Assembly (NCBI GenBank): GCA_973895155.1
Contig: OZ316895.1
Coordinates: forward strand, 1,971,659-2,035,658
DNA length: 64,000 nt
Direction of reading: 5' to 3'
DNA from: Marsupella aquatica
Lineage: Eukaryota; Plantae; Marchantiophyta
Shown: piece after piece, positions 299-63,996 of the stretch
Layout: every line of letters begins with the position of its first letter
Numbering within the stretch: position 1 is the first letter of the stretch
The notes under the pieces: model-generated
Database searches by the model: none
What the model was told of the DNA's origin: nothing
Seen by the model: the letters and a program-made list of their open reading frames with translations, nothing else
Position numbers and translations under genes: made by a program

Positions 299-4487
<4,189 letters not shown>

Positions 4488-4489
<2 letters not shown>

Positions 4490-4514
4490 CTCTCTCTCTC
4501 TCTCTCTCTCTCTC
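4488..4514. repeat. (GA)n/(CT)n microsatellite abutting the NFS2 start codon
   Basis: About 13 TC units directly upstream of the ATG on the minus strand. Confidence 0.9.
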
Positions 4515-4844
4515 GTTGCTCAGTGGGCGATGCTCCGCTCTGCTCCGCTCCACTCCAATCGCCTTGGCCGAAAAGCAAAGCTTCGTTGCTCGGCTGAGTC
4601 CCTTGATACGACTGTTGCAAAACCTCAGCCCCCAGCAACGCACATTCCGCAGTTGCCTTCGTGCACCTAAGATTTTCTCCAAGGTACTTGTTTTTTTCGC
4701 TGGTATGCAACGTGTCTAAGTAAGCGCATCCTGCTGGAAAGAAGGCCCCAAAATGCATTTACCGGGATACGCAGTTTGGACTATATACATGGTAACGCCG
4801 CCTTGACTCCAGGCCTTTTGGCTATATGTATGGAGTAAAGTAAA

Positions 4845-5625: not shown

Positions 5626-5932
5626 TGTGGGGAGAAATCAGATCAGGAAACGTGCTCAATAGTTACGTGGTTCGCCTCAAGGTTGGCTACGTCCACGGGA
5701 AGACCAAGCTTTATTAATGGTTATGTGTCTACTCAAGCATCACCATAGCTCTCATCTCTTCAAGCTCTCATCTCTTGTTATATCCCTGTGTTCTCTCTTG
5801 AGAACTCTCTTGTGTGTTCTCACACCACATAGAAGTTGAAGAGATAAGGACCAATCTCTTCAACTAGGGTTTACTCTAACCCTAGTTAACATACTAACCA
5901 TAGTTCAACCCAAGACTGAGTTAACCTCTACA
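5626..5932 (-). repeat. 3' LTR of the Copia element
   Basis: Near-identical to 12479-12819 apart from a ~20-bp indel, copy number of a 16-bp CTCTTCAAGCTCTCAT unit and a few SNPs. Confidence 0.95.
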
Positions 5933-6129
5933 AACTCCCCCTTGACTCACGTCTTGGGAGGGTTCATAACATTGTCTTTTCCTTACAAGTTCCTCCGCGG
6001 GAAGTTCAAGACAATAGGGTCAAAGGACCCTCCCCCTAATGCAAGGGTTAACTAGAACTAAGCCGTAGCCGATAAGCCATCGGATGGAGTACTCATATAG
6101 AGACATTTTCTTGGTTAACTCTATATTTA

Positions 6130-9100
6130 CAATATTTGTAAATAATTACAATGCCTTGAAAAAATATTGGAGTCTAATACTTTGGTAAAAGCATCTTGTG
6201 GATTAAGCTTTCCATCAATCTTGACAAGCTCAAACTCATCATCCAAAAATGTTTGTCAGATGAAATGATAGCGGACATCAATGTGCTTTACCCTGTCATC
6301 CATCACCTGATTCTTGGCAGTATAAATTGCACTTTGACTGTCACAATGAAGATAGACACAATCTTGTGATAAACCCATCTTCGTGACAAGCTTTTTCAAC
6401 CAAATGGTCTCTGATGCTGCTTTTGCTGCCGCTACATACTTTGCATCCATAGTAGACTTTGCAACACACTTTTGGAGAGTAGACTTCCAACTAATGCATC
6501 CACCAGCAAGTGTAAATACATATCCAGTTGTCGATCTCCTCTTATCCAGATCACCTGCATAGTCTGCATCCACATAACCTTGAAGCACTTTCATATTGGT
6601 TGAACTTGCATCAAACAATAAACCCTTCTTAGTGGAACCTCTGATGTAGCGCAAAATCCATTTCACTGCTTCCCAATGAACTTTTCCTGGATTTGCCATG
6701 TATCTGCTTACCTTGCTAATGGCATAAGCTATGTTTGGTCGGGTGCATACCATGAGATACATTAAACTACCCACAACACTTTCATAAGGAACTTTGGACA
6801 TCAAACTTTTTTCTGTCGCATCCGATGGACAAAATGCTGCAGAAATATTGAAATGCCTTGCCAAAGGAACACTCATAGCCTTAGCATCTGCCATGTTGAA
6901 TTTTGAGAGTACCTTCTCTGCATATCTTTTCTGCGTCAGCCAAAGTTTGGCTTTGTTAACATCCCTAACAATCTCCATGCCTAGGATCCTCTTGGCTGTG
7001 CCCAAATCCTTCATCTTAAACTCATAACTAAGTTGGGCCTTAAGCTTATCAACTTCGCCCCTATCCTGTGCTGCAATGAGCATGTCATCCACATAAAATA
7101 CAAGGATGACAAGCTTAAAACCTATGTTGTTCACACGCCTGATGTAAACACATGGATCGTACACGCTTTGCATAAATCCAAGCGATTTCAAAAATTCATC
7201 AAAACGCTTGTTCCACTGCCTTGGGCTCTACTTTAATCCATACAAGGATTTTAGCAACCTGCATACCAAATTTTCCTTGCCCTTTTGCACAAAACCCTTT
7301 GGTTGCCTCATGTAAATTACCTCATCCAATGATCCATATATATAAGAATGTCGTGACAACATCCATTTGATCTAAAATCAGATCAAATAAAACTACAAGA
7401 GCACATAGCAAACGTATTGTTGAATACTTTGCTATGGGTGAAAAAACCTCATTGTAGTCTATATCTTTCTGTTGAGTAAAACCCTTGGCTACCAACCGAG
7501 CCTTAAATATCTTCTCAGCATCCTCCGTGGGTCCATATTTTTTCCTATACACCCACTTGCTGTCAATAGCCTGCTTGTCACTAGGTAGACTTGTGAGTTC
7601 CCAAGTCTTGTTATCATGAAGTGATTTCATTTCCATGCGCATCGCCACCTGCCATTGTTGCTTCTCCATAGAAGCTAGGACCTCTTGAAATGAGGATTGA
7701 TCTCCATCTTCTGTCACCAATGCATCAATAGATTCTTCATCCAAATCCACATGATCAGAAGGAAGCCAAGTTCCATACCTTTCCCGGGCTTGACGTAACT
7801 TACAAGTTCCTCTTCGCACTGAAGACTCTGGCTGATCTGATTGTAGTGTGCTTTGCCTTACAGTAGTGTCAACATATTCTTCATTTGACACATCATCTCC
7901 TCTTAAATCCTCTAGAGGAGGAGATTGCACTTTGTTAGTAGTAGGGAATTGATCTATCTCCCCCTCCTTCAATGATTTGTCTTCATTGAAGGATACATCC
8001 CGACTAACAAGTAACTTGCAATCAACTAGATCCCACAATCGATATCCTTTAACGTCACGCTGATAACCAAGAAAAATGCATTTTTGGGCTTGAGGATCTA
8101 GCTTAGTCCTATTGTTGCTAGGAACATGTGCATGTGCTTCACAACCAAAAACCCTAAGCTTTGAATAATCAACAGGTCGATTGTGCCATAGCTCAAAGGG
8201 GGTTTTGTAAGTAATTGCTCGACTAGGAGAGAGATTTACTAGATAAGCAACTATGTTGACAGCTTCCGCCCAAAAGATTTGTGGCAATTTAGAATGGCTC
8301 AACATGCTCCTTGCTCGGTCCAACAATGTGCGGTTGAGTCGCTCAGCAACACCATTTTGCTCAGGAGTGTACACACTTGTGAGATGGTGAGTAATTCCCT
8401 TATTTGCACAATACGTGTTGAACTCGCCACAGGTGTATTCACCACCATTATCTAATCGTAGATATCTCACATTCTTTGCAGTCTGTGTCTCAACTTGAGC
8501 TACCCATTGTTTGAAGATGGAAAGCACTTCAAACTTATGGGCAATGAAATAAATCCAAACAAACCTTGAGTAATCATCGATAAACGATACATAGTATTGT
8601 TTGCCTGAATGTGAGGAAACCGGAGCAGGACCCCACACATCGGAATGAATATACTCAAGTACAATTTTAGAATGATGAATGGCAGTCGCAAATGGAGTTC
8701 TTGTTTTCTTGCCGACAATGCAATGATCACAAAAACTCAACTTGCATGCTTGCAATCCTGGTAGGAGATATCGCTTGTGTAGGATTTCCAAACTTTTTTC
8801 ACTCATGTGACCAAGCTGAGCATGCCATAAATTGATTTTCTCCTCCTGAGATGTGACCAAATTGACTTCGGCAAGAAGGGTTGTGCCTTCCAAGACATAA
8901 ATGTTTATTTTCCTCTTGCCAATAAGAACTTCATTTAATCCGTGCGTGACTGTTAACACCCCATCAGTTGCACTCCATTGATAACCCTTCGCATCCAAGT
9001 AGCCAAGAGAAATCAAATTCTTACACATTTCTGGAATGTGTCTGACATTTGATAGAGTACAGTACTTGCCACCGGGTAGTTGAATCTTTACGGATCCAAT

Positions 9101-10153
9101 CCCTAAAACTTTGCAAGAATGATTATTTCCCATCAAAATAGATCCGTTGATAGGAGTGTAGGATGAGAAAAGTTCACGCATATAACACATGTGATACGAG
9201 AAAGCGGAATCCAAGATCCATTGACAATCCTCAACTTGGGAAGTGGTACACAATGCAAATCCTTCACTATCCTCTTATCGAACAACTACTTGGACTGAAG
9301 AACCAGCAACTTCCTTGAATGTGTCTTTGATGCGACAATCGTTCTTCATGTGGCCCACTTTGTCACACTTCCAACACTTTATCTCATGAGTAGACTTGGA
9401 TGGTGATTTGGATCAAGATCTAGATCTAGATCTAAACCTCCTCCTACCAAAAGATCGGTCGTGGAACCTTCCTCGCCCCTGGGAAGTGGGTTAAACCTTT
9501 TGTTTTCATGAGATGGCTCCCTTGTTTTGCCTCTTTCTACCAATAGTGTTGTTGATGATGAGGTTGAGGTAGGATGAGCTGAAGAAACCAGCTTCGACTG
9601 CATATCATCGATCAACAAGGCACTCACTACATCATTGTAGGATATAGTTGTCTTATCACGGAATAGAAGAACTCGAGACAAAAATTGGTACGAAGGTGGT
9701 AGTGAGCTCAAGAGTTGTAAGGCTTTCTTTTCTTCGCTCAAATGCTCCCCCAAATTCTCTAGGTCAACCACAAGATCATTGAACTGATCGATATGATCTT
9801 GAATCTTGACTCCATTAGCCATTTTGAATTGCATGAGCTTCAAGCTTGCATACATTCGGTTTGACATCTCCTTCTTGTAGTACTTGTTGCGCAATGCTTG
9901 AAACAAGTCCGTCACCGTTTATGTTGTTTTTTCCTCGAACTGCTTCTTCACATTGTTTTACAATACTTACCGCTTGATTTTGGAGATCATGCCAATCATC
10001 ATCTTCCATCTCCTTGGGTTGAGATCTTAGTACCTTGCCTAGGCCCATCGCCCTAAGTGCATCCCTCACGTTACGTTCCTACATTGTATAGTCAATCCGA
10101 CCATCAAATTTTTCCACCTCAAACCTTTGACCTCCAATCCTAGTAGTCGCCAT
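6130..10153 (-). pseudogene. Copia gag-pol polyprotein, disrupted by stops and frameshifts
   Basis: MATTRIGGQRFEVEKFDG gag start, CWKCDKVGH zinc knuckle (~9380), protease WILDS, integrase HSDVWGP and EQNGVAER, RT YVDDML, RNase H YVDADYAGD and KHIDVRYHFI. Split over several ORFs, with premature TGA at e.g. 7322 and 6256. Confidence 0.95.
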
Positions 10154-10969
10154 CGCTGGAATGCCAAATGTAGTTTGGAGTTGCCTTCCGACAAGAAATA
10201 AACGTCGAATGCTCAGATGTGGGGTGTGAAAATAAGGCCAAAAATAAAAGTTGGGGTGAATTTTGAAACTGATCACTCCTATGTGTAGCCCACAAGGTAA
10301 CGTTCCAAATTCTGAAAACGGTTTGTCAAATGGACTCTCGAGTGCCAAGAATTTTTACTCCAACCGGAGGGGGGTAAAAGATGAAATAATTACCCCTCGA
10401 GAGAATCTCTTATGCCAAAGATTCCACTAGTGTATTTTTTCAGAATCAAACGCACCAATACTTGCCTAGCTCCCCAAGTACGCCTCTCCAAAAGTTGAAG
10501 TTGATCCAATTTTATTTGCCGCTCAGAATCTTTGACCTTCAGTAAAAATTTAAGCCTCTGGAAAATAATATTTTCGAGAAATTTCGTCCGCCCTTGTACA
10601 GCCCCTGTGGAGGACTTCACAGGGGGCACTTCCCCCTGCCCGAGCCCTATCGAGCCCTAAAAGGCCTCCTCAAAGTTTTCGACCTCCTCGCGCGTTCACG
10701 GAAGTTGCGACTACTCGTGGTAGAAAGTACCCCTCGGCGGATTCACTCAAATTCCTGTCTCAATTTTTGACGAAATCCAATTCTGATTCAGAAACTAGAC
10801 TTCGAGGGCATCAAGATTGATATAAAGAACTCACAAAACGGTGTCGTGATTTTCTCTTAAGTTATAAAAAATTGTTTGTTTTAATATGCTATAGATTATA
10901 TAAGTAATTTAGTAGTTAGATTATTAAGTTTAGATTTTATTAAAACTCTTTAGCTATATTAACGGACTA

Positions 10970-11185
10970 TTGTAGTTCCACCAATGCATATGAGTAGTTC
11001 CACCAACTATAATAATATTCACCTACGCATAGTAATTCTACCAACGCACAGTAGGTCCACCAGCGCATAGTAGTTTTACCAACTACAGTAGTTTTACCAA
11101 CGCACAGTAGTTCTACCAACGCACAGTAGGTCCACCAACGCATGGTAGTTCCACCTACTAAAAGTAGTTTCACCAACTATGAACA
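10970..11185 (+). repeat. ~19-bp tandem array (TAGTTCCACCAACGCA[C/T]AG-like, ~11 units) upstream of the small-ORF cassette, copy 1
   Basis: Directly visible. A homologous shorter array lies at 14325-14445. Confidence 0.9.
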
Positions 11186-11310
11186 GTACTAGCACACTCT
11201 TAGGTATTAGATGTTTGACACTTGGCCTTCATCCAAGTGCTTGGGCTTGATCCATGCCCTCTTGGTGTGCACTATAAATAAAGTGGTGAGGGGCACTCTC
11301 CCCTCATTCT
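11178..11310 (+). promoter_or_regulatory. Putative core promoter of the cassette (TATAAATA at 11273)
   Basis: Block alignable by eye with 14441-14584 (TATACATA at 14547). Both are followed ~25 nt later by a pyrimidine-rich CTCATTCT initiator-like site. Confidence 0.6.
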
Positions 11311-11499
11311 GCAGTGTTTATCATTCAAGGTTGGGAAGCTCTTTTGTGCCTTGAACATAGTAGTGGGGCGTCCTTTGGCCCGGATAGCAAAGGAATGAGT
11401 GGTAGACTTATAGATGGGACCTTAGGGAATAAGGTTTCTTTGGGAATATAGGGGTGGGGCGTCCTTTGGCCCGGATAGCAAAGGAATAGGAGAGCCATC

Positions 11500-11715
11500 A
11501 TGAATCCAGGAGAGAGAGTTATCCCTGATCTTCCCCTTCGTAATCCGTTTTTGATTAGAGTCCATCTTTTAGACAAACCATCTATGAGGCAACATCTAAC
11601 CTATCATTTTGGAGCTCAGTTTGCAACTGCTATTATGATTTCTAACGAGCCAATAATATACCCAGTGGTGTCGTACCGAGAGGAGTGGGAGTGCATCATC
11701 TTTGTCCTTTATTGA
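11500..11715 (+). CDS. Cassette ORF-A, 71-aa unknown protein
   Basis: Intact ATG in GCCATCATG context through to TGA. Homologous to frameshifted 15281-15512 (PFLIR, YHFG, IMxSNxPxxYP, EWEC shared) and paralogous to ORF-B. Confidence 0.6.
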   Translation: MNPGERVIPDLPLRNPFLIRVHLLDKPSMRQHLTYHFGAQFATAIMISNEPIIYPVVSYREEWECIIFVLY

Positions 11716-11719
11716 AGTC

Positions 11720-11926
11720 ATGGATCTAAATAGGAGTCCGGATGATATTCCTGTTTCATTTTCTCTTGGAGATATTAGGATCATATGTCGTAAGAAAACT
11801 AATTTTCGTGATGTGTTGGTCCGCAAGTATGATGAAGTAGGGTTTAACAGTATTTTAGTTTCACCTGAACCTTTCTTAATACCCACTACCCTTGTTAATA
11901 GAATTATCATTTTGATTTTAGTGTAG
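11720..11926 (+). CDS. Cassette ORF-B, 68-aa unknown protein (MDLNRSPDD...)
   Basis: ATG lies 4 nt after the ORF-A stop. Ungapped homology to ~15555-15763 (DLNR, CRKK, RDVLVxKY, EP, IIIxI) with many synonymous differences. Confidence 0.6.
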   Translation: MDLNRSPDDIPVSFSLGDIRIICRKKTNFRDVLVRKYDEVGFNSILVSPEPFLIPTTLVNRIIILILV

Positions 11927-12478
11927 AACTTATGAGCATGCAAGGTTAACTTCAAAAGAGCCAACATGCTCTTGCCAAAAAACACGGTCACCCGGACAAC
12001 GGTGGAATAATGAGGGAGAAAGAATTTGATGAAAGTGACTGATATTAAGTTATCCGCCATAGCCAAAATTTTGAGCTCAAAAAATAAGAATTGAAATTAA
12101 GATTGCTTCTCAACCGTTTGACGGAATTCAACGATGTTGATATCGAAACGTCTAGAAAGACAAGGCGCTCAAGCGTATCTCAGTTTTAAGTCACGATAGA
12201 ACAATCAAAAAGACTGATCTGAGAAATTGACCTTATCTCTTGCCCGATAACGTAAATTGAAAACTGTCACTTACAATTGTTTCTGTTTCTGACCTCAGGC
12301 CTTCATTGCTTCACTGAAATGAGTCCCTGGTTGTGTGGTCCACACTTGTGAGAAGATTGAGTCCGATCTTCTTTCAATAGCTCCGCTTCGAAGAGGAAAT
12401 CATCCGTTGTTCGCTTTGCTTGAAGCAAGTTCTATGGAGTTCCTAATCGACTAAAAAAATCTGAGCTCTGATACCAAT

Positions 12479-12819
12479 TGTGGGGAGAAATCAGATCAAG
12501 AAAAACACTCTAAACTTACACGTGCTCAATAGTTACGTGGTTCGCCTCAAGGTTGGCTACGTCCACGGGAAGACCAAGCTTTATTAATGGTTATGTGTCT
12601 ACTCAAGCATCTCTTCAAGCTCTCATCTCTTCAAGCTCTCATCTCTTCAAGCTCTCATCTCTTGTTATATCCCTGTGTTTTCTCTTGAGAACTCTCTTGT
12701 GTGTTCTCACACCACATAGAAGTTGAAGAGATAAGGACCAATCTCTTCAACTAGGGTTTACTCTAACCCTAGTTAACATACTAACCATAATTTAACCCAA
12801 GACTGAGTTAACCTCTACA
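12479..12819 (-). repeat. 5' LTR of the Copia element
   Basis: Adjacent to the PBS and matches 5626-5932. Confidence 0.95.
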
Positions 12820-14683
12820 ATGTGGCCGCTGCCAGCCCCAAGGTCTGCTGCCGTGCGTCCAGTCCTACCACGACTGGAGCAACCACCCTGCTACACAGCC
12901 AGTCTTGCCCCAGCTGCATGCCGCATCCTTGTAATCTGCCTCCCTTCCACCTCGCCCCGGTTTGGACTTGTTGGACAAATAGGGCCATTTGGGGCGACAA
13001 TTGACATATGTTGCCCCGGTTGATCCTGGCCAATTGACAGGTTGGGCGGGAGGGTGTGGAGCTTGATCGGGAGAAGGGTCGGGGGATTGGACAGGTCGGG
13101 TGTTGCTCGGGGGTCAGGCTGGCCAAAAGTCGGGCGGGGAGGTCCGGTTGGGGGGAGGGCCGGTTGGGAGTCGGGCAGGGAAGGCCGGTCGGGGGGACTG
13201 CTCCCTTCGAGAGCCTGTCTGGGATGAGGCGGGCGAGCGACGAGCCAGACCGGGAGAGAGCGAGCGGGACTGGGAAGGTACCAGGCTGGGAAAGGTTGGG
13301 ACCCGGCCGAGAGGGGTCAGGACAGTTTGGGACCGGGCCGGGAATGGTTTGGGAATTTTTGGTCCCAGCCAGGGAATATAAGAGAATATTGGACAAATAG
13401 ACCATTTTTGAGAGGACAAGTTGTCATTTGTCGTGTCGGACAAGTAGACATCTTGTCTGACAGTGAAAATCGGGCACCTCACCTTGACAACTCCCTCTCT
13501 CCCACCTTGCTCCATTTCCGTCCCTCCCTCCCTGACGACCTGCCCAAAAAAAACTCCCCAATAGCCCCCAAGTCGACTCAAAAAGGAGTTGAGGGAGGCA
13601 ACTTCCTCCCTGCACACCCTGTGACTCGCTGGCCCCCTCCGTGTATCCTTCCTCCCTTTGCGTCTTCTCTCCCTCCTCCCTCACTCCTTTCCCTCCCCCT
13701 CCATATTTCCCCCCCCCCCATCTTGACCCTCTCTCTCCCTACCCAGCACCTCCCTTCCCCCTCCACGCCTTGACTCCCTCTCTTCCCCCTCCACACCTTG
13801 ACTGTCCCCTTCTTGGTCCACCTCCATCGCCGCATGTCCACCTCTGCGCCTGGACCTGACACTGTTGCACTCCCCCCTTGCCCGCACGATCGGCCTATGA
13901 AGAACCCTAGGGAGGGACCATCCCTAGGTCTTGGGTTCAGGCTTGGGGGCCTCACTATATGGATGCCTCTCCATCCCATGCAACATTTTTAGGCCTCGGA
14001 TCCCTATAAAGTTAGAATATTCTTGGAATATTCCAAAATTTTGGTTAAAACAACCCTAATTATGCTCTTATAAGTCTCAAAATTGGATTTTAAAATACCC
14101 TATTATTTTTCTCCAAAAATTCTTAAGTCTTCCCTTTGAACCAATAAAATGACCCTATATTACGTCACACGTTGTCGTAGGGATTCCCTATAGAAGGTTA
14201 GAATCCATATTGTGTTATCAGAGTTTATGTGGAAAGACTTTTACTTAGAAATTATATAGTAGTAATATTATAGCATATAGGCTATATTATGTATGCACAG
14301 TATACATTCTATGGTGATGCACAATAGTTCTACCAACTACAGTATAGTAGTTTCACCAATTGGAGTATAATAGTTCCACCAAATATGGTTCCACCTACTA
14401 CAATGAATAGTCTATAGAGAGGCACAATTGTTCCACAAATTATGAACAATATTAACACATTTATAAGTACTTGATGCTTGCCACTTGGCTTCCACCCAAG
14501 AGCCAAGGCATTGTTTCATGTCCTCTTGGAAAGCACAAATGAGCACTATACATAAAGTGAAGAGGAACACACTCTCCTCATTCTCATTGTTTGATTAATC
14601 ATGTTGTCGGAATGCTGTAAGGAGCTATTCTCCTCTTGTGCACATGGCTTGTTTGTTATTTGTATCCATGCTTAGGATACTAA

Positions 14684-15202
14684 CCCCTGAAAATCACTTG
14701 TCGGATTCTTAGAACCACGTGCAAAAAAATGAAGGCTATTTAAAATCATGCCCAATTAATAATTATAAACACAAATTTGTAATAAAAGAGATTAATTAAC
14801 TCATTATCTCATATTATTTTTATTTTTATGTAAGGGTATTATTACATAGTGTATGCCACATATCACCAACGGATTGGTCCACATGTGACTTGCTTAGTGT
14901 AGGTCATGTATTAGTAGTTTAATTTGTTATAATGGTATTAGTTGTTAAACATGAACCATACATGTGCACTTGATCATGCCTTAGTATTGTATTCGCAATA
15001 CTTTATAAAGACACAAGGGGTTTTACAAGAAGTTTCTAAATTATTTATAAATGACTCAAGGGTGTTTTTAATATATTGAAAATTATTTATTATATTTTTC
15101 AAAGGTCTCTTAAATTTTTCATAAGAAAATTAATAAGGTGTATGTAACATGTAAGTGTTCACATGGGTATTAGGAGTTTTAGCCTAAGTGATTTTCTAGG
15201 GG
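14684..15202. mobile_element. Nested MITE, TIR CCCCT(A)GAAAATCACTT, flanked by TACTAA direct repeat
   Basis: TACTAA at 14678-14683 and 15203-15208. 16/17-bp inverted termini and AT-rich interior. Confidence 0.75.
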
Positions 15203-15280
15203 TACTAACTTGATTGTTAGCCTTAGAATTATTCTATATTTTATGTTTACTAATGTTGAGACCAATTTAGAGTAATTATA

Positions 15281-15763
15281 ATGAATAATATGATAAATGG
15301 AGTACCTAGAGTTCATCCTCCACCTGTTGTGCCATTTGTTAGTCCTTTTTTAATTAGAATTCGTTGTCTTAGCAAGTATACCATGATAATGCATCTTTTT
15401 TTATCATTTTGGGCTTGAATTAGTGAAAATTATTATGAATAGCAATGCACCATTTGTATACCCGATTGTCATTTATGGGAATGAATGGAATGTGACTATT
15501 TTATTTTGTATTCTAAGATAGATCTTAATAGACAACTTGAAAATGTATCAAAGTTAGATTTGAATAGACTTCCTAATAATGTGTTTGATTTTCCTTCATC
15601 TATTGACATTATGATGGTATGTCGCAAGAAAGTTGATTGTAGAGATGTTTTAGTTAAAAAATATGGAGAGGAAAGATACAATGTCATGCTTAGGATGTCA
15701 GAGCCTGTGATTATATCATCTATGATGAATCTTAAGATCATAATCTTTATTTTCCATAATTGA
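15281..15763 (+). pseudogene. Cassette copy 2: ORF-A/ORF-B homologue, apparently fused, with two 1-bp frameshifts
   Basis: Reconstructed MNNMINGVPRVHPPPVVPFVSPFLIRIRCLSKYTMIMHLF/YHFGLELVKIIMNSNAPFVYPIVIYGNEW/ECDYFILYSKIDLNR...CRKKVDCRDVLVKKYG...IIIFIFHN. Confidence 0.7.
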
Positions 15764-16974
15764 CTTATCTAATTGTAGGATTCATTGAGATTTGCAATCC
15801 ACTACATGATCGACTTGAGAATTAAATTATGTGGGAAGAGAGGATAGGCCAATTTGAGGCTTAGTGTGAGGAAGCCACTTATTATAGAGTGGGACAAAGG
15901 CTATGAGAGATATTTTAGAGGCTAATGGTGAGAGAAATTGATCGAAAGGGGATTGCAAGGACGATATGAGGTGAGAAAATGCATACTTTGAAAGGTTCCT
16001 TTTGAGATAGGAAAAACAAGAGCTTGGTGCTTCCCAAAAACTAAAGATTTCCCCGACAATGTGATATGTCATTTTTATGGAAGTGAAACCCCCAAGGATT
16101 CAGGCATCCTGAGTGAAGATGGGCACTGTCAGGTCCAAGGCCAAACTCAACAAGAATGTAACAGGGCCTCATCAAATTAACTTAGTCATCCTTGGCCTTA
16201 ACTCAACGCATTGCCTTGGTTCAAACTTGTCGGCGAGCCCTCAACCTTACCGTTATCTCTTGCACTAGGGCTAGCACTCAAAGATGCATGGGTTTGGGGC
16301 CAAAATATTGGGACCAAAATTGGTCAAGGGTGGAAGGTTGTGATGCCTTGCCAAGGATCATTTAGTATTAGTTAAGCCTAAGATAGTCGGCAAATAGTAT
16401 TATGTATATAGTTGGCCTTGTTGCCTAGTTCGCAAACTCTTGCTGACCAAGAAGTTGTGTGTTGTGATATTTGTTGCTTGATCAATTTAAGTCAGATAAA
16501 GTGAAATTTGTGAGCACAGTAGGATTGCATTGTCTTGATTGGAAACTGCCAAATCAAACTCTGAGAGAAAAGTGAGGTATTGAGAGTGTTAGTTGGTTAA
16601 AGTGTGGGTTGAGTCCGTCTGAAAAAGACCTTTAGCCGACTTAAGAAATTAAGCCGTAGAGGTACATTTCGGGGGCGGAATACAAATATACCTGATAAAG
16701 TCAAAGGAGAAATTAGGTGTCTCTACAGTGCACAATTCATAAGTCCAGTGAAAGAATCGGTCCAGCAAAGTGTGGATTGAAGGATAGGCCGCATTTCCAA
16801 GCCGAATAGTTGCCAAACTCCTAGAAGCCGGACATAAATAAGTGGTTTATGATTGGTTGCTGGTAGTTCTTGGGGTTAGAGGTGTCGGGAAACGTGCCAC
16901 AAAGGTCCTTATAAACATATATATGAGGGGACCACCTCCTCTCAAGAATCAATTGTTTGAAAAATGTTACAAAC

Positions 16975-17703: not shown

Positions 17704-18290
17704 CTAGCCTGTTGCCCGTGCGTTGCACAAAAGATTTTGAGTTGGGAGCAAGATTTTGAGGTGAGAGCAAGATGTTGAGGCGAGACAAAGATGTTGAGGT
17801 GAGGGCAAGATGTCAAGGCGAGGAAAAGATAGGAGGTGAGAGAAAGATGTCAAGGCAAGGGCAAGATGTCAAGGAGAGGCAAAGATAACTAAGGAAGGAG
17901 GTGAGGTCATTAAAGATGTTGAGGTGAAAAAAGATGTCGATGAGAGAAAGAGATGTTGAGGTGAGGAAAAGAAATCAAGGTGAGAAAAGGAGGTTGAGGA
18001 GAGAATAAAAGGCAAGGTGAGAAAAAGATGTAAAATGAGGAATAGATGCCGAAGAGAGAAAAGATGTTGAGGGTGACAAAAGTATATTGTAGTGAGATAA
18101 GATGTCAAGGTGAGCAAAAGGCAAGATGTCAAGTTGAGGAAAGAGGTCAAGGAGAGAAAAGATGCATGTCAGGGAGAGAAAAGATGTCAAAGGTGAGAAA
18201 AAATATTGTGGTGAGATAAAGTTGTCAATGTGAGAAAAAATGACAAGAAGAGAGAAACATGTCAAGGTAAGGTAAAGTTGTTGTGATAGA
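17704..18290 (-). mobile_element. Helitron-like non-autonomous element filled with a GAGGTGAGAAAAGATGTT minisatellite
   Basis: Minus-strand 3' end TTTTGTGCAACGCACGGGCAACAGGCTAG|T (short hairpin, CTAG, T). The 5' end was not located. Confidence 0.7.
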
Positions 18291-21579: not shown

Positions 21580-22095
21580 CCTTGTCTTGACATCATTTAC
21601 TAATCTTTACACATTTATGTCTCCTTAACATCTTTATCTTGCTTTGACATCTTTTTCTCTTAATATTGACATCTTTATCTCACCACTACATTTTTTCTTA
21701 CCCTGACATATTTTCTCTCTTGGACGTCTTTTTCTCTCCTCAAGATCTTTTTTCACCTAGCTTGACAATTCTTCCTCACGTAGACATCTTTTCCTACCCT
21801 TGACATCTTATCTTTTTCTCACCTTGACATCTTTATTTCACCGCGACATAGTTTCCCTCTTCCTCAACATCTTTTTTCTCCTTGACATCTTTTCCATCAT
21901 TACATCGTTTACTCCTCTTTACATAATTTTCTCGGGATCTTTCTCACCTCACCATCTTTTTGCTTCTTGATATCTTTTTCTCGGCTTGACATCTTTTTCT
22001 CTTATCAACATCTTGTTCTCTTATCGACATCTTATTTATCTCCACATCTTTTCTCACCTCAACATCTTTTGTGCAGCACAAACACCGGGCTATAG
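21580..22095 (+). mobile_element. Same Helitron-like minisatellite family, decayed 3' end
   Basis: CTCACCTTGACATCTTTT units ending TTTTGTGCAGCACAAACACCGGGCTA. Confidence 0.55.
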
Positions 22096-23449: not shown

Positions 23450-25727
23450 ATGGCCGCGGTTTCGGCTATGATCGTCGGTGCTGCTCTTGGATCCGTTGCT
23501 CCGCGGCAGACAGCTGCAACCCAGGCGTGGATCTCGATCGGAGGCCGTAGCGAGTGCTCTCTGAAATACTCGAGGACTGCCCGGTGCTGTTCCTCCATTT
23601 TTTCCATTTTAGGTGAGTTTCCGGTGAGCGTAACTACTTCAGTCGAAGTGGTCACTCAAGAGAAGCTTTTCTGTGGTCTGCGTGACAATACTGCTTGATC
23701 TAGAATATTTGGTGTTGTCATCTGTTGGACTCGAGGGTCTTTTCTAACGTAAAGATATGTTTGTTGCTACCTGTCTGTAATTTGTGTTGGGCCGTGCGCA
23801 GTGTATCCTGGAAGTTGGTTTTCCCAGTGTTATTTCTAAGATTGTGAACAGTGTCCTTGCTAAAAAAACTATGAGATGCCTTGGAAGCTTCAAAGGTGGA
23901 ACCTGTGTATTTCTCTTGACATTTTGGTGAGGTGGCCCCGTAGAATTTGGACTGCTTGACTTGAGAGTTGCCAACTAGAAGCTCGTTAGTCTTTCTCCGT
24001 GGGTAAGAAGTCAGTGGAACTTATGAGGTGTGGTTTGCTCTGATCGTATTGTGGCGTTTGGGTTGATACATTTCCTGCTGGTCGGTCCGAGTTCCTTGGC
24101 TCTACTTCTGGAGTATGTAATTGCAATTATGTAGGAGATGAGGGGTCCTTTTTCTTTACTGTGTCATTTATTTCGTCAGCATTGAGTGACTATCTGAGAA
24201 GTTTGTCTACTTTGCTGTCTTTTGTCGTACAAGTTATATGTTCCAGGGCGTCCTATTGTTGGGGCAGAGGCTCTACAGTTTTGGGGCTCACTAGCGGTAC
24301 TGGCTTGCAGTGGGTCCTACTGAACGAGTGGCAGAAATTATTGATGGGAAGGCAATTGCTAAGGACATCCGGAAAAGCATTGGCGAGGAAGTGGCCCAAA
24401 TAAAAGAAAGAGTAGGAAAAGTTCCAGGGTTGGCTGTAGTACTGGTGGGAAGTCGCACGGACTCAGCAACGTATGTCCGTAGCAAAAAGAAAGCCTGTGA
24501 AGAAGTTGGAATTGCCTCTTATGAGGTGAAGTTACCGGAGGATGCTGCAGAAGAAGAGGTCTTACAATCAGTTCGCAAGTTTAACAGCGACCCAGCTGTC
24601 CATGGAATTCTTGTGCAACTCCCACTTCCAAAGGTACCAATAACATCTCCTAAAAAATGGAACTTGGGGTCAGCAGGGAGGAGAGAAGGGAGGCGTACGT
24701 ATGCTCCTTGATGCTAATGTACATGAAATACTTTGGCAGCATATGAGCGAGGAGACGATCCTGACAGCCATCGACGTTGAAAAGGATGTTGATGGGTTCC
24801 ATCCCTTGAATGTGGGACGTCTGGCTTCGCAAGGCAGGACACCTCTTCATGTGTCCTGCACTCCAAGAGGCTGCATAGAGCTCATGCTGCGATCTGGAGT
24901 GACTATCAAAGGCAAGCATGCCGTTGTCATTGGCCGCAGCAATGTGATTGGGATGCCAGTTGCCATTCTTCTGCAGGTCAGTATCTCAAAATGAATACGC
25001 TTTTATAGGGAGTCGGCGAAATTTTTCACTAGCTGATAGTGCATCGCCAAAACATGGCATGGTACTGAAATAAGGGAAACAGAGTTACCAGTTGGTACTA
25101 TGATCAAGTTTCATAAGGGATTCCTGTATGGCTTTTGATTTAGTGGAAAAGATTGAGATTGTTACATTGCTTGCAACAAATATTTACTGCCTGTCTGGTT
25201 GCAATCATCGTCGAACTCCTACTCGTGCAACGATTCCTGTTACCGCTCGGGGGTTACCCTAAACTCTCATCTGATGCACGGTTGAATGTTTGCAGCGGGA
25301 AAATGCTACAGTGACTGTCGTGCATTCACACACACCCGATCCTGCTGAAGTCACCAGAAGGGCAGATATAGTGATTGCAGCTGTAGGGGTTGCCCACCTA
25401 GTCCGAGGCGATTGGATCAAGCCTGGTGCAGTGGTCATTGATGTTGGGATTAACTCTGTTGAGGTGAGTTCGAACCTTTTAGCTTTCATCCTTGGGTAAT
25501 TATCTTGCTGGGGCTTTATATTTCAAGCTAACACATACTTCTCTGTGCAGGATCCAAAGGCAAAGAAAGGTTATCGGCTAGTTGGAGACGTGTGCTATCA
25601 TGAAGTTTCTAAAGTAGCGTCAAAGATAACTCCAGTACCTGGAGGAGTAGGCCCAATGACAATTGCTATGCTCTTGTCCAACACCTTGGATTCTGCTAAA
25701 AGGTCCTTTGGCCTTACTGATCGTTGA
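23450..25727 (+). CDS. FOLD: Bifunctional methylenetetrahydrofolate dehydrogenase/cyclohydrolase with N-terminal organellar targeting peptide, 5 exons
   Basis: Exons 23450-23612, 24311-24633, 24740-24976, 25296-25463, 25551-25727, with consistent phases. Motifs [49 protein letters not shown]. Confidence 0.96.
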
Positions 25728-35448: not shown

Positions 35449-36160
35449 AGCCCCATGCCTGTGCATTGCACAAAAGATGTTGAGGTGAAGAAAAGATGTC
35501 GAGATGGAAAAAAATGTCAATGAGAGAAAAAGATGTTGAGGTGAGAAAAAGAAATTGAGGTGAGAAAAAGATGTCAGGGTGAGAAACAATAGTGAGGTGA
35601 GGAAAAGATGTTGAGGAGAGAAGAAAATGTCAAGGGTGAGGAAAGATGTTGTGAGGAGATTTAAAGACAATGATAAAGATGTCAAGGTGAGAAAATATGG
35701 TGATATAAGAAAAGATAAGATATCAAGGTGAGACAAAGATTTTGAGGTGAGAAAAAGATGTTGAGATGAAAAACGATGTTGATGAGAGAAAAAGATGTCC
35801 AGGTGAGAAAAAGAAGTCGGGGAGAGAGATGACGGCAAGGTGAGAAATAGATGGAAAGTTGAGGAAAAGATGTTGAGGAAAGAAAAAAATGTCAAGCGTG
35901 AGAAAAAGATGTCACAATGAGATAAAGATGTCAAGGTGAGAAAAGATCTTGAGGAGAGAAAAAGATGTTGAGGTGAGAATATTTGTCAAGTGAGGAAAAA
36001 TGTCATGGTGAGGTAAAGATGTAAATGTGAGAAAAATGGCAAAATGAGAAAAAGACGTCAAGGCAAGGAAAAGATGTTGAGGAGCAATAAATATGTAAAG
36101 ATTAGAAAAATACATGAAAGTGAGATTGAAAAGATGCTAAGGAGACATATAAAAGAGATT
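35447..36160 (-). mobile_element. Helitron-like minisatellite element
   Basis: Minus-strand end TTTTGTGCAATGCACAGGCATGGGGCTAG|T followed by ~35 diverged 17-19-bp units. Confidence 0.7.
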
Positions 36161-38617: not shown

Positions 38618-39478
38618 GAGCATCTCCAGCAGTAGGACCTTCGATCGGTTCCCACAACCCCTATTCTCTCGTATAGCGGTCATTATTTGGCAAGAAATGC
38701 ACCCCACTGGTGCTTCATCCAGTATTTTTTTGCTGCTACTGCAAAATGCATTACCTGCCGACCTCCACTTTTGGCAGAAAGGAAGCCTAGAAGTAGCTCC
38801 CCTTTGCCAGCCTCCATATGGTCAACCATCGAGCGTATACCACATGGCATCATCGGCGATGGATCCAGCTTGTGCATGAAAACTGGCAACTCCTGCGAGG
38901 GAATGCAGCTCTTTTGCAAATCCCCCCAACGAAGCCGGACAAAAAAATCCTGCACATTTTCATGCCTGGGAAATGTGTATCATGCAGTCCTCGTTTCAAA
39001 CAGTGCACTTGTACGTGAAGTTGGGGAGGTCGCCGTGATGGCAGCAAGTCGTGGGAAGAAATATTCAACCGAGGAGCTCAAGCAAGTGTGCTACAACGTC
39101 CTACATGTGTCCCATGACCCGTGTGTTGGTTCTGGGCAGAGAGCCGCCAGGTTTTGGGAAAGGGTCAGAGAGCACTATGAAAAACACAAGCCGCACGGTA
39201 CAGAATCTAGGGCCAGAAAATCAGTGGAAGGAATGTGGAGTGACATCAAACACGATGTTGCAAAGTTCAATGGAGTATTTCAGCAGGTAGAAGACCTGCA
39301 AATTTCTGGGACGAATGATGATTATACGTTGATCAAGGCCAAAGAATTATACAAACAGAATCATCCGAAAGGTAAATCATTCTCTTTCGAGTGCTACTTT
39401 TGGATCTTGAAAGATTGCCCAAGGTGGGGCAATCCGCCAGACAAGATGTTGCCCAAGATCAAATTTGGGATCAAATGA
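38618..39478 (+). mobile_element. PIF/Harbinger remnant with truncated Myb/SANT-like ORF
   Basis: TAA then GAGCATCTCCAGC terminus at 38615-38630. ORF from ATG 39038: RGKKYSTEE...VSHDPCVGSGQ...FWERV...W...VAKFNG...SG...AKELY...F.FE..WILKDCPRW. No transposase or right TIR seen. Confidence 0.85.
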
Positions 39479-46328: not shown

Positions 46329-47450
46329 GTCTGTCGAAGACTCTTCAATTTTGCACCTAGCGAAGAAGAATTGTCAAATAAGGTGCACGGGTAGATGGGG
46401 AGGAAAATCGATTGGGGGTTCTATGGCATGGGTTGAAGCAGAGTAGTTGTTCTGAGTTAAATTGCATCACTGAGGTGCGTGCAGTTTATAATGGTAGGCA
46501 TTGAGGATACACGAGTCTATTTTCTGTTGTGTGCAGCAGCCGTAGAATACTCATTCGACTCCTATGAATGGCCAGCTCATCCACCTAAAGAACGATTGCG
46601 TAATTAAAGGTGTACATGCGGGTGTACATGAACCATGAGATAAGACAGTCTGCTATCCCGACTGGAGCCAAAATTTCAATGGGTTGAGTACTGTCTGAGT
46701 CATCTGAAACGAATGAGCCATCGACTCGGTCTACTTGGAATTCCATCTATGCCAGGCAACTGAATGCACTTAGGAGTCATGTCTTTCTGGTAAATGCGCA
46801 TACTAACTCAACAGCATGTACTTTGTAGTGTACTGTGTCAAGTGGCATATGCCCACATTCTTTGGACAGAATTTCCATGCTACTATGAACCCGACTATTA
46901 GTATCAATGAGCTTCGGTCCTTCTAGTACGCGAATATATGCGCCCATTGGTTGACAGATTTTCCATACCACTATAAAATGGCCTGTGTTGTTTATACCAA
47001 TGAGTGTTGTTCCTTCTATCGACTTTTCCCATTGTTTTGTTATGACGTTGAGTGTTGTTGCTTCTAAGTATTAATGTGCTTTTGATGTAGTTACCGAGAA
47101 GTACGAAACCCTTCGTATGCGACAGAATGGTGTGGGTTGTCGAGTACAGTCACTAAGGTTGAGGTCCAATGTCATCTTATAAAGTTCTGATGACATTGGC
47201 TGGGAGTAAATCAGCCTGCACGAGCATAGAGTAGCCAACATTCCCGCGGTCTCAATCCTGGGATATCGAAGTCCCCATCAGATCGATCTGAGACTCGGAG
47301 ATTGAAGCGATTTTGAACAGCCAGAGAGCAGTGGCAATTGCCTCCGGCGTAGGGAGCATTTCTCGACGGAGTCTCCAGTCAACTCTTGGAACAAGTGTCG
47401 TTCGCAATTCCGAGGTTTTTGTTAATAGTTTGTCACGCCTTCATTGAGCA

Positions 47451-49574
47451 ATGACATCGCCACTCGCATTCGTACTGCTGCTGCAGCTGGTATTAGTTTT
47501 CGCGGCAGTCGAGCAGATTTTGTGGGTTGACGGGACACCACAATTCACCACAACAACTCCGACATATCCACGAGGGGGGATCAAGGCAAAACTCATTCAT
47601 AGGGACGATTACTTTCGAGATAAGAATGATGCGTCCACACCCAGAGAGAAGGTCGACCGAGCAGCGAGAAGGAGCTTGCTGCGCGTGCAGTATCTCGAGA
47701 GGAAAAGACAACTTGCAGGAACAACCCCGTCAAGTCCGAGTCCGGCTCCGGGCAGTGCCGACTGGGAGACGCCCTTATCGGACGGAGCAACTGCTGAGTA
47801 CCTGATGGAAATCGACCTCGGGACACCCCCGCAGAAATTTGTGGCCATTGCGGACACGGGTAGCGATCTCACCTGGCTCAATTGTGCCCCATGCCAGAGT
47901 GGCTGCGCAAGTGGTACTACTTTTCAGCCAACTAAATCCTCCACATATGCCCCGCTCGCATGCTCTTCGAGCATGTGTCGCTTCCTAAATGAATCTGGAA
48001 AACTCGAGGGAACAGTCTGTCCGCTTTCAAACGATGTCCCTGCGTCAGGATGCAGCTACTCATATTCGTATGGAGACGGGTCGGTAACAAGAGGCACGCT
48101 CGCCCAGGAGACGCTTACCATGCAGATAGTGGCCGGAGGCTCCCAGACTGTGCCGGACTACTGGTTCGGCTGCTCTACCAATGCAGCCAGCAATTCGAGC
48201 CTGCTCGACAGCAGTGATGGACTCGTTGGCTTGGGGCGTGGCAATATCTCCTTCCCAGCTCAATTGGGAAAAGACTTTGGCCAAAAATTCGGATACTGTC
48301 TCGTCAGTAGGTAAGCCACCTTCCAAGCATATAAGAACAACAGATTCGAAGGCACATTATTTACTCTCCTTTCCTTTTCTCGTAGTCACTGTGCACATTA
48401 TTTACTCTCCTTTCCTTTTCTCGTAGTCACTGTCTCATAATTAACACGAACCAGTCGAGGTGATATGGAACTAAATTAAAGCCAGCATCATTGACTGTCT
48501 TCAATTTAAAATTTAAAGCTAGCTTCAATCTTAATTCAATGGTAAGAGGAGAATATCAGGAAAGAAAGGAGAGCCGAGATATGATCGCCTTGAACTCTCC
48601 AAGTTTACCATCATTTTACGTGTTGATCGTTTAATCTGCACTACCTATACGCTCCTTGGCTATGATTACTTAAGGTATTTTTGCTTCTAGACAACTTTGG
48701 TTCCAAGACGATGACAGGAAACGAAGAATCTAACTACAATATGGCTGAGCTTAATGTGCTAGTATGGAGAAAATCTAGAAGAAGGTACACTAATTCGAAA
48801 TTGATTAAATATTGTGAGCGCGAACTGATAAAAGAGTTGGTTATCCTGAACATTGGGACATTCAGGTCGTCATCGCAAGTTCAGGCGAGTCCTTTGTTCT
48901 TTGGCAAGGATGCAGTGCCATCGAATGCAATACTTCAGTTCACTCCCCTTCTCAGCAGCAAAATGATCAGTACCTTCTACTACGTGGGTTGCACGGGGAT
49001 CAGTCTGAACGGGATCACTGTCAAAAACATTTCAGCATCTGCTTTCGCCATCTCGCCAGACGGCAGCGGAGGGTTCATAGTCGACTCAGGCACAACGTAC
49101 ACCATACTAGCGGAATCTATCTTCACCCCATTCATGGCGGCCTTAGCAGCACAAACTAGTAGTCAGTACCAACCATTTCTAGATTCCACTGGCTCCCTAC
49201 TGTGCTACGTCGTTATCTCGTGGAGTGATTGGGTCAAGGACTACGGAAAAGGAGCGCCCAGTATCAGCTTCCAGCTAACAAACACAACGGGCTTCACTCT
49301 GGCGGTGGAAAACGCGTGGATCGAAATGTCCGACACTACAGTGTGCTCGACGATTCTGGGGACTTCGGGCAAAATGAGCATCTTGGGTAATCTCCAACAG
49401 GTGGGCTTCCGTGTTCTCTACGACTTGGAGAACCAGCAGATCGGATTTGTCAAAGCCGATTGCATGTCAAATGCGTTCGTCATTTCAAATTCTCAGAAAA
49501 CCGTCGTGAGCATGGGAACCACTCTACTCTCTGCCCTCCTGTCAATGGTGGCACTCGTATTTACGTTGACTTAA
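47451..49574 (+). CDS. Nepenthesin/CDR1-like A1 aspartic protease with signal peptide and hydrophobic C-terminal (GPI-like) tail, 2 exons
   Basis: Exons 47451-48310 and 48866-49574. Catalytic DTGS and DSGT, Cys-rich insert, YGDGS flap, GLVGLG, ILGNLQQ...YDL...IGF. Confidence 0.94.
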
Positions 49575-62569: not shown

Positions 62570-63285
62570 CTTTGCCTCACCTCAATATCTTTTCTTTACC
62601 TCAACATCTCTTCTTTACCTCAACATTTTATGTGCAGTGCATGGACATTTTTTGGGTTCTTTACCTCATCATGACATCTTTCCATCACCGTCAACATATT
62701 TTCTCTTATCAACATGTTTTCCTCATCTTTACATCTTTTTATCACCTTGCCATCTTTTCTCTCCTCAACATAGTTTTTTCACTTTGACTTCTTTTCCTCA
62801 CCTTGACATCTTTTTCTCTCATCGACAACTTTTTTCACACCAACATCTTTTCTTCGCCTTGAAATCTTTTTCTCTCATCAACAACTTTTTCACACCAACA
62901 TTTTATTTCACCTCGACATCTTTTTATCTCATTGACAATTTTTTTCACCTGAACATCTTTTGTACATGCAACACATAGGCACTGGGCCTTGGAGGGTTAA
63001 CTAAGTGTATATTTTGGGGTACCACGTGCAATCCTATCCTAATCTAAATAGACCTATTTTATAAAAAAAATATTCCAAGAATATTCTTTATTTTCAATAT
63101 TAATAATCTATTTTACTTTATAAAGGGTATATATTAAAGAATATTCTATAAACATGAGTTTATAATACCTTCTTTTGCTTCCTACGCTTTTAAAAACTTT
63201 AGTTAAAATCTGCCAAAAATACCTATTTTGGATCGCACGTGGTTCCTAAGATTTTTGATAGTCAACCCCCCGAGCACTGGGCTAG
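62570..63285 (+). mobile_element. Helitron-like minisatellite element whose 3' end is split by a MITE
   Basis: Removing 62988-63282 restores ...TGCAACACATAGGCACTGGGCTAG|T. Confidence 0.65.
62988..63274. mobile_element. MITE with 8-bp TSD (CT[C/T]GG-type termini)
   Basis: Perfect TSD CACTGGGC (62980-62987, 63275-63282). TIR CTTGGAGGGTTAACTA versus reverse complement CTCGGGGGGTTGACTA (13/16). Confidence 0.85.
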
Positions 63286-63700
63286 TGTATGTAATATTAG
63301 CTTTAATTAGCTAAAGTTGTGAGAGGCTATTATGGTCCAAAATGCTCTAGTAACACACATTATTATGCCCGGGGTCCTCGCTTCTTTTCTTCCGACCCAT
63401 CATGCGCGAATAAGTATATGGGTTTTTTATTGGGTTTAGTGAAATACTTTTAAATTTTTGTTGAAGAACATTCGCTATTTTAATCCAATTTTGAGAATTA
63501 TAAAAATCATAGGGTTTTTTAAAATCAAATATGAGAATCTTCTTGGAATATTCCATTAAGTTAGGAGTAAAACAATTCCTAAAAAAAATTATTGACTTAA
63601 CTTTTAGGGTGTTTATTCTCCAAAAACTTTGAGCGTGATATGGGACACCCCTTGGATTGAGGCACCTGAGTTATTATGATGAGACAGTGTTACAAATTTT

Positions 63701-63996
63701 CTCAGGGGTCTCACTATATGGGGACCTCCCCATCGCCTACGACGTTTTTAGGCCTCGGACCCCCTAAAATGTAAGAAAAAAAATTATTTTTTAACCCCTA
63801 TAAAGTTGGAATATTCTTGGAATATTCTAAAAATTGGATTAAAAAGACCCTAATGTTCTTATAAGTCTCAAAATTGAATTTAAAAGACCCTATTGTTCTT
63901 CTACAAAAATTCTTAAGTCTTCCCTTAGAACCAATAAAATGACCCTATCCTTCGTCGCACGTGATATGCCATTTTTGTGGAAGTGAAACCCCCGAG
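63701..63996. mobile_element. 296-bp short member of the 13942-16096 TIR family
   Basis: CTCAGGGGTCTCACT...AGTGAAACCCCCGAG. Colinear with 13942-14170 and 16060-16096. Left flank CAAATTTT, right flank begins CAAA at the window edge. Confidence 0.85.

Follow-up and report, generated by a model that had tools for sequence, protein, structure and literature searches.

A conserved pair of small ORFs with a candidate EAR motif in two nested, LTR-like insertions of the liverwort Marsupella aquatica

Accessory open reading frames (ORFs) are common in the long terminal repeat (LTR) retrotransposons of plants, and their function is obscure. In animal retroviruses, some proteins are coded within the LTR itself, as with sag of mouse mammary tumour virus and the nef overlap of human immunodeficiency virus, both in U3. 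Here, we describe a pair of ORFs of about 70 codons each that occurs twice in a 64,000-nucleotide stretch of Marsupella aquatica DNA (contig OZ316895.1 of assembly GCA_973895155.1; this whole stretch is called the window below), inside two nested insertions that are probably solo LTRs. They would thus be LTR-coded like sag and nef, but they lie downstream of a TATA box and are unrelated to them in sequence.

Gene23 of Grande, RIRE2, Retand and the env-like ORFs are likewise conserved accessory ORFs of unclear origin, with proposed regulatory roles (PMC7264820). The additional plant ORFs described there are internal, and most of them follow pol and precede the 3' LTR (PMC7264820), whereas the present pair of about 70 amino acids each lies within the element termini, behind the TATA box. 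The insertions themselves resemble Phygy, a non-chromovirus Ty3/Gypsy lineage for which 186 elements have been described, all of them (100%) with a 4-bp target-site duplication (TSD) of the form NCGN, with a length of 7.7-10 kb and with a polyprotein occupying nearly the whole interior (PMC6317226). In the same REXdb survey, Phygy alone shows a target sequence preference. The likeness lies in the TG...CA ends, the 4-bp NCGN duplication and a size compatible with LTRs >1 kb, for which the published length appears to leave space. Phygy is known from Physcomitrium (PMC6317226) and a liverwort (PMC12885004), and has been found nested within other elements (PMC6911290). No extra ORF is listed for it in the available text, but the survey disregarded ORFs shorter than 250 codons (PMC6317226), and because of this threshold our two ORFs, ORF1 and ORF2, would have been invisible to it.

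Two further systems invite comparison. VANC of the VANDAL elements is, like our pair, an element-encoded accessory protein that goes together with a noncoding tandem array; however, VANDAL is a Mutator DNA transposon and VANC is activating, whereas the motif found here suggests repression (PMC10398659). An earlier note on this DNA had drawn the analogy to VANC and its anti-silencing role. It finds no support in the sequence: neither the window ORFs nor 32 members of their family match any Pfam family at its curated level, and the sole recognisable motif points to repression; the element also lacks terminal inverted repeats (TIRs). That motif is of the EAR type, a name that stands for amphiphilic repression associated with ethylene-responsive element binding factors. 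The ORF2 family shares the DLNx(x)P consensus with EAR repressors and with EAR-bearing pathogen effectors such as Jsi1, including exact matches to characterised motifs (PMC9956375, PMC8126959). It differs from them in that its motif is N-terminal, it has no known DNA-binding domain and it is borne by a mobile element, and its binding is a prediction.

Nesting itself is ordinary; the novelty would be a microprotein pair that is LTR-borne, selected and EAR-bearing. Solo LTRs are commonly seen as non-coding remnants; the present ones retain intact ORFs downstream of a promoter. Searches of open-licence full text turned up neither the present family nor any protein that is encoded in an LTR and bears an EAR motif. 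The words EAR and TOPLESS are absent from the available main texts of an Arabidopsis atlas of transposable element products (PMC13547354) and of a bioRxiv preprint (10.64898/2026.08.24.746577), and the phrase "open reading" is absent from the available part of PMC7466625. EAR-dependent recruitment of TOPLESS is a directly testable hypothesis for a selected retrotransposon microprotein pair without a library match.

The ORF pair and its motif

Both insertions lie on the plus strand and run from TG to CA. Copy 1 (10842-11998, 1157 bp) is flanked by an ACGG/ACGG duplication and is likely a solo LTR; copy 2 (14173-16058, 1886 bp) has an ACGT/ATGT duplication and is probably also a solo LTR, from a subfamily that has diverged. 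In copy 1, both ORFs are intact: ORF1 (11500-11715, plus strand, 71 aa) is followed by ORF2 (11720-11926, plus strand, 68 aa), which starts 4 nt past the ORF1 stop. In copy 2, ORF2 is present as a frame (15485-15763, plus strand) that contains DLN twice (15521 and 15557) and has Ile at the codon matching the first Met of a relative, P0002. The small ORFs that the earlier note had reported in both copies are found as a pair both times, although ORF1 of copy 2 (15290-15521, plus strand) is frameshifted near 15385-15392. ORF1 and ORF2 align without gaps over 50 columns (hhalign probability 88, E 2.9e-6) and are, as judged from this alignment, paralogues, with DLN missing from ORF1.

The pair has been under purifying selection in the past. 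Over 120 aligned codons of copies 1 and 2, pS was 0.695 and pN 0.358. The dN/dS ratio comes to about 0.25, where dS is close to saturation; pN equalled or exceeded pS in 0/1000 bootstraps. Such selection had been suspected from the codons for RDVLV and DLNR; these are present in both copies as quoted, and the suspicion was well founded. Fifteen ORF variants, a biased sample drawn from the best 40 of 255 variants, comprised 7 synonymous changes, 5 Ile>Val, 3 other missense changes and 0 nonsense changes.

A two-sequence ORF2 profile (HMMER), searched against 1.84 billion representatives, retrieved 33 proteins, of which 2 are spurious repeats. A 32-sequence profile gave 38 matches among 309 candidates, and an ORF1 relative used as query gave 11/11; a word search with ORF2 alone gave no match. 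The long repetitive proteins P0016 and P0020 and one read-through translation were excluded from the family counts. The annotation of 20 looked-up relative clusters held nothing beyond "hypothetical protein", and a search of viral contigs for related loci found none. One metagenome locus (L001) was rejected as a bacterial false positive of 19 residues.

ORF2-type proteins have a median length of 68 aa counted from MDLN (n=75), and ORF1 relatives are stand-alone 71-aa proteins with a common terminal residue. These lengths led us to reject the idea that ORF1 and ORF2 are, as a rule, one frameshifted protein of about 140 aa. No indel at the ORF1/ORF2 junction was seen among the best 12 of 21 indels. 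Four relatives (P0006, P0040, P0048 and P0090) are fused two-domain chains, which could be real or could be single-copy frameshifts.

The proteins belong to no recognised family, in keeping with the earlier note, and a regulatory role is plausible. Pfam had no family for the four ORF pieces or for ORF2, and none at the curated level in the 32 members; its best candidate, Bestrophin_2 (2 of 32 members, E 4e-4), was not accepted as real. A PDB sequence search gave a single match at E 1.9 and a profile search none, and the ESM Atlas gave no usable match for two queries. An AlphaFold model of ORF2 predicts two short strands followed by a long helical segment, with a hairpin at the C terminus (predicted local distance difference test score, pLDDT, 88; predicted template modelling score 0.66). 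With this model, a Foldseek search of PDB and of viral libraries gave no match at E<=0.001, and the best VIA-align Z score was 3.2 among 48,161 chains. The missing fold match is compatible with a known fold and does not prove a new one. A model of the tandem relative P0006 (pLDDT 50, 4 sequences) was not used.

ORF2 starts with MDLNxxP. In copy 1, the motif reads DLNRSP (11723-11740, plus strand) and lies in a low-confidence and probably flexible N-terminal tail (pLDDT 63 over residues 1-10). Both window copies match the EAR consensus DLNx(x)P, which together with LxLxL makes up the known consensus patterns (PMC9956375; PMC6283911). Among 69 relatives that are not of the ORF1 type, near-duplicates included, 62 contain DLN and 56 contain DLNx(1-2)P, whereas 0/16 full-length ORF1-type proteins contain DLN. 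D2 and N4 are kept in 31/31 aligned rows and P7 in 25/31, while adjacent positions vary. As the query had contained the motif, the profile was rescored without it; 24/33 matches still had E<=0.001, with DLN in 21/24 and DLNx(1-2)P in 18/24. By composition alone, the motif would be expected with a chance of about 0.002 per protein (relatives are not independent), and it is doubled in one subfamily (P0002 and copy 2). Characterised EAR motifs include DLNRPP, DLNEPP and DLNLPP (PMC9956375), all of which occur within the ORF2 family. We consider it somewhat more probable than the reverse that the ORF2 motif binds the TOPLESS and TOPLESS-related (TPL/TPR) proteins; repressors of the EAR class bind these or SAP18.

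The promoter block and a possible feedback loop

Upstream of the ORFs, the two copies share a tandem array and a core promoter block. The blocks at 11167-11319 (plus strand, TATA box at 11273) and 14430-14592 (plus strand, TATA-like box at 14547) align over 164 columns with 72.6% identity (E 1e-18), confirming the alignable TATA block of the earlier note; transcription would start near 11305. The 19-bp array claimed for both copies is clear in copy 1 (10972-11177, plus strand, 10.7 copies), where it lies upstream of the TATA box as in U3, but its counterpart in copy 2 (14323-14398, plus strand) is short and degenerate (period 23, 2.6 copies; core motif 4x). The core motif has 16 matches in the window, 10 in copy 1 and 4 in copy 2; window shuffles had a mean of 6.2 matches, and 0/100 reached 16. 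A hairpin at the 3' end was no stronger than in shuffles (z -1.14).

The leader of copy 1 has some features of its own. It contains a 44-bp direct duplication (11353-11396 / 11444-11487, 93%), and short upstream ORFs lie between the TATA box and ORF1. In many contigs from public sequencing runs, a pyrimidine-rich stretch right before an AG replaces the sequence ahead of 11355 (seen at 11340-11365); in a sister subfamily, this could act as a splice acceptor within the leader. In the run X5 (organism C), the promoter block at 11200-11310 has >50-fold the summed depth of the ORFs and continues into different sequence downstream; the core promoter seems to be common to many other subfamilies.

Tentatively, and short of holding it for probable, we propose that solo LTRs encode a paralogous pair of about 70 aa each, of which ORF2 recruits TOPLESS and so likely damps its own promoter. 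In this scheme, recombination between two LTRs would leave a solo LTR in plus orientation, with the array and TATA box as U3 and the ORFs downstream in R/U5, and transcription from the LTR promoter would pass through ORF1 and ORF2 before gag. The EAR motif of ORF2 would then bind the TPL/TPR co-repressor. The weakest step is that the small domains may pair, as the fused forms in some relatives hint, and may bind nucleic acid via the conserved R20, K26 and R30, with the 19-bp array as a possible target. The outcome would be negative feedback on the activity of the copy, with ORF1 as an EAR-less partner or tuner, and a poly(A) site downstream of ORF2 would make every solo LTR a complete mini-gene.

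A bolder version is unlikely, namely that a bryophyte Gypsy element carries an LTR-borne two-gene regulator in which a DNA-binding heterodimer of new fold brings TOPLESS to the 19-bp array. If true, hundreds of solo LTRs per genome would be self-contained mini-genes, forming a transposon-encoded and sequence-specific self-silencing circuit that survives deletion of the element body, a mirror image of VANC. Such a circuit may also rewire host genes.

Several observations weigh against the feedback proposal, some concerning function and others, given with the termini below, concerning the assignment to an LTR. Of 65 characterised DLNx(x)P motifs, just 5 are found elsewhere than in the C-terminal region (PMC9956375), while that of ORF2 is N-terminal. 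The fold searches with ORF2 recognised no DNA-binding fold, and ORF2-type proteins have a low net charge (median +2). The proposal also lacks an explanation of how ORF2 is translated behind ORF1 and the upstream AUGs. Finally, the relatives are known from protein sequences and are placed in LTRs by assumption.

The same DLNxxP motif would equally serve a solo LTR whose ORF2 acts as a decoy for TOPLESS or as an effector that manipulates the host, occupying TPL/TPR and de-repressing host or element genes rather than silencing its own promoter. There is a fungal precedent, as the EAR motif of Jsi1 binds TPL/TPR and activates the ERF (ethylene response factor) branch (PMC8126959), and neither the low charge nor the absence of a recognised DNA-binding fold would trouble a decoy. 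Yet a decoy needs little beyond its motif, whereas here a 60-aa domain is conserved and duplicated (K26 in 31/32 aligned rows, R/K30 in 30/32), and ORF1 has been selected though motif-free. We regard this explanation as unlikely.

It is also doubtful that DLNxxP is not a working EAR motif and that the pair encoded by the solo LTR acts instead on the element's RNA or particle, by binding the leader, by controlling translation in the manner of upstream ORFs, or by a part in packaging or in nuclear import. The position of the ORFs in the inferred transcript, before gag and at its 5' end, would suit such a role, as would the small domain with conserved basic residues and the atypical position of the motif. 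However, this leaves a near-invariant motif of five to six residues in a low-confidence tail that equals characterised EARs, is improbable by composition (with the caveat of non-independent relatives given above) and is duplicated in the subfamily of P0002 and copy 2.

Termini, nesting and the kind of element

Quite probably, the element is a solo LTR that derives from a Gypsy retrotransposon resembling Phygy. It has several features of a solo LTR: TG...CA ends, a short inverted match, a flanking duplication and an empty site. Copy 1 starts with TGTC and ends with GACA, copy 2 starts with TGTCG and ends with CGACA, and both are bounded by 4-bp NCGN target duplications. We compared the window with contigs from five public runs; X1-X4 are four samples from two studies and X5 is from a third, and one run may be the source of the window. 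The tables of contig joints cover the best matches, and summed contig depth is read as depth rather than copy number. In X2, 15 contigs depart exactly at 11998 into unrelated flanks (agreement 0.43) whose consensus starts CCG, which fits NCGN. Both duplications and this flank consensus fit the NCGN of Phygy. In X1, X2 and X4, summed depth beyond 11998 is lower by a factor of 4 to 5. Ahead of 10841, two contigs of X1 have a purine-rich flank in common, the end of which does not fit NCGN; it may, as a weak indication, be a polypurine tract, implying a plus LTR orientation.

The remaining points against the proposal belong here. Four-bp duplications are also reported for Selgy, TatI and part of Galadriel and TatII (PMC6317226). 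For the left flank of copy 1, a longer repeat of 6-7 bp is another possible reading; we read 4 bp because of the homology with copy 2. No rise in contig depth was seen at the left end of copy 1, and neither a full-length element nor gag-pol joined to the module ends was found in the contig data. A tRNA-Trp primer binding site (PBS), a feature of the Phygy lineage, was absent among the best 24 of 467 loose ends.

TG...CA ends with a 4-bp duplication also occur in Ginger1 (PMC6839031), which likewise counts against an LTR. A whole, non-autonomous TG...CA element moved by an integrase-type (Ginger-like) transposase, with the two ORFs as its only genes, would further explain why both window copies are single units and why no internal gag-pol was seen. 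However, the inverted match between the termini is just 4-5 bp (17/40 positions) and the duplication is 4 bp, whereas GingerRoot elements have TIRs of 100-150 bp, 6-bp duplications and mostly TA ends (PMC6839031). The NCGN preference is specific to Phygy (PMC6317226), and the order of array and TATA box is LTR-like. We give this origin a low probability, and continue with the solo LTR.

Copies 1 and 2 are separate nested insertions of one TG...CA element family. Copy 1 sits in a Copia element, and the Copia site without the insert was found in one contig of X1, two of X2, one of X4 and one of X5 (none of X3), with an empty-site joint at 10843>12011. Copy 2 sits in a miniature inverted-repeat transposable element (MITE), whose site without the insert was seen as contig joints in 4/4 runs (X1-X4); many MITE copies in the run data lack the insert. 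Copy 2 itself holds a small inverted-repeat element in its leader (14678-15207, strand not assigned, about 530 bp, 22-nt arms), with a joint at 14673>15200 in X1, X3 and X4, and without this inner MITE its length is about 1360 bp. The small element was apparently inserted at a TA site, and the whole forms a three-level nest of MITE, LTR-like element and MITE.

The earlier note had seen one module in both host elements and had proposed that elements of class I and class II exchange a cassette as cargo. The array, TATA block and ORF pair are indeed shared, but the module extends further than had been described, and in each place it is bounded by termini and duplications of its own. A simple nested insertion, with termini and a TSD of its own and with copies of both families free of it, had been named beforehand as the outcome that would overturn the exchange, and this is the outcome we found. 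Nor does the module resemble Pack-type cargo, which has no termini of its own and is present in a family's other copies, in either the Copia or the MITE family. Exchange of a portable cassette is therefore very improbable: although the copies sit in elements of different classes, some Copia copies carrying copy 1 remain compatible with the joint tables (which also counts against separate insertion) and a co-amplified nested pair, as reported for Phygy inside Tcn1 (PMC6911290), is possible, the module has its own termini and duplications twice, empty sites in both hosts and many unrelated flanks, and the MITE is only about 280 bp long with many copies lacking the insert.

Host transposons and other features of the window

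The Copia host described in the earlier note, with the module antisense to it, is real. It is a Ty1/Copia retrotransposon on the minus strand (5626-12819) with a 3' LTR at 5626-5933, a 5' LTR at 12479-12819, Pfam gag, integrase and reverse transcriptase domains, and a 5-bp target duplication identical at 4/5 positions. Copy 1 landed in it, but the module does not belong to it; the antisense position of the ORFs arose only because the nested element was inserted in the opposite orientation. Its PBS lies at about 12463-12478 and is presumably of the tRNA-Met type.

The element with TIRs and an 8-bp TSD that had been named as host of copy 2 (13942-16096, strand not assigned) exists, with a duplication matching at 7/8 positions, but it is a MITE of about 280 bp split by the 1886-bp insert into 13942-14172 and 16059-16096. 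A sibling without the interruption lies at about 63700-63996. This empty sibling sits in an imperfect palindrome of about 570 bp (63399-63996), which possibly consists of two related MITE halves in opposite orientation.

Between the two hosts, the region at 12820-13940 is GC-rich, with a purine-rich half followed by a pyrimidine-rich half, and is at single-copy depth except for a repeated part near 13272-13488. Elsewhere in the window, we take 3074-4519 (minus strand) to be a cysteine desulfurase gene of the SufS type, 24295-24994 (plus strand) a FolD-like gene and 47448-49574 (plus strand) an aspartic protease-like gene, while 38636-39478 (plus strand) is presumably a Harbinger-type Myb-like ORF. 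Four long and degenerate 19-bp arrays (17731-18268, 21586-22070, 35472-35979 and 62658-62961) have a different motif and are unrelated to the LTR array. The first two are in facing orientation at a distance of about 3.5-4 kb, which suggests that such arrays are subterminal repeats belonging to an abundant family of DNA transposons.

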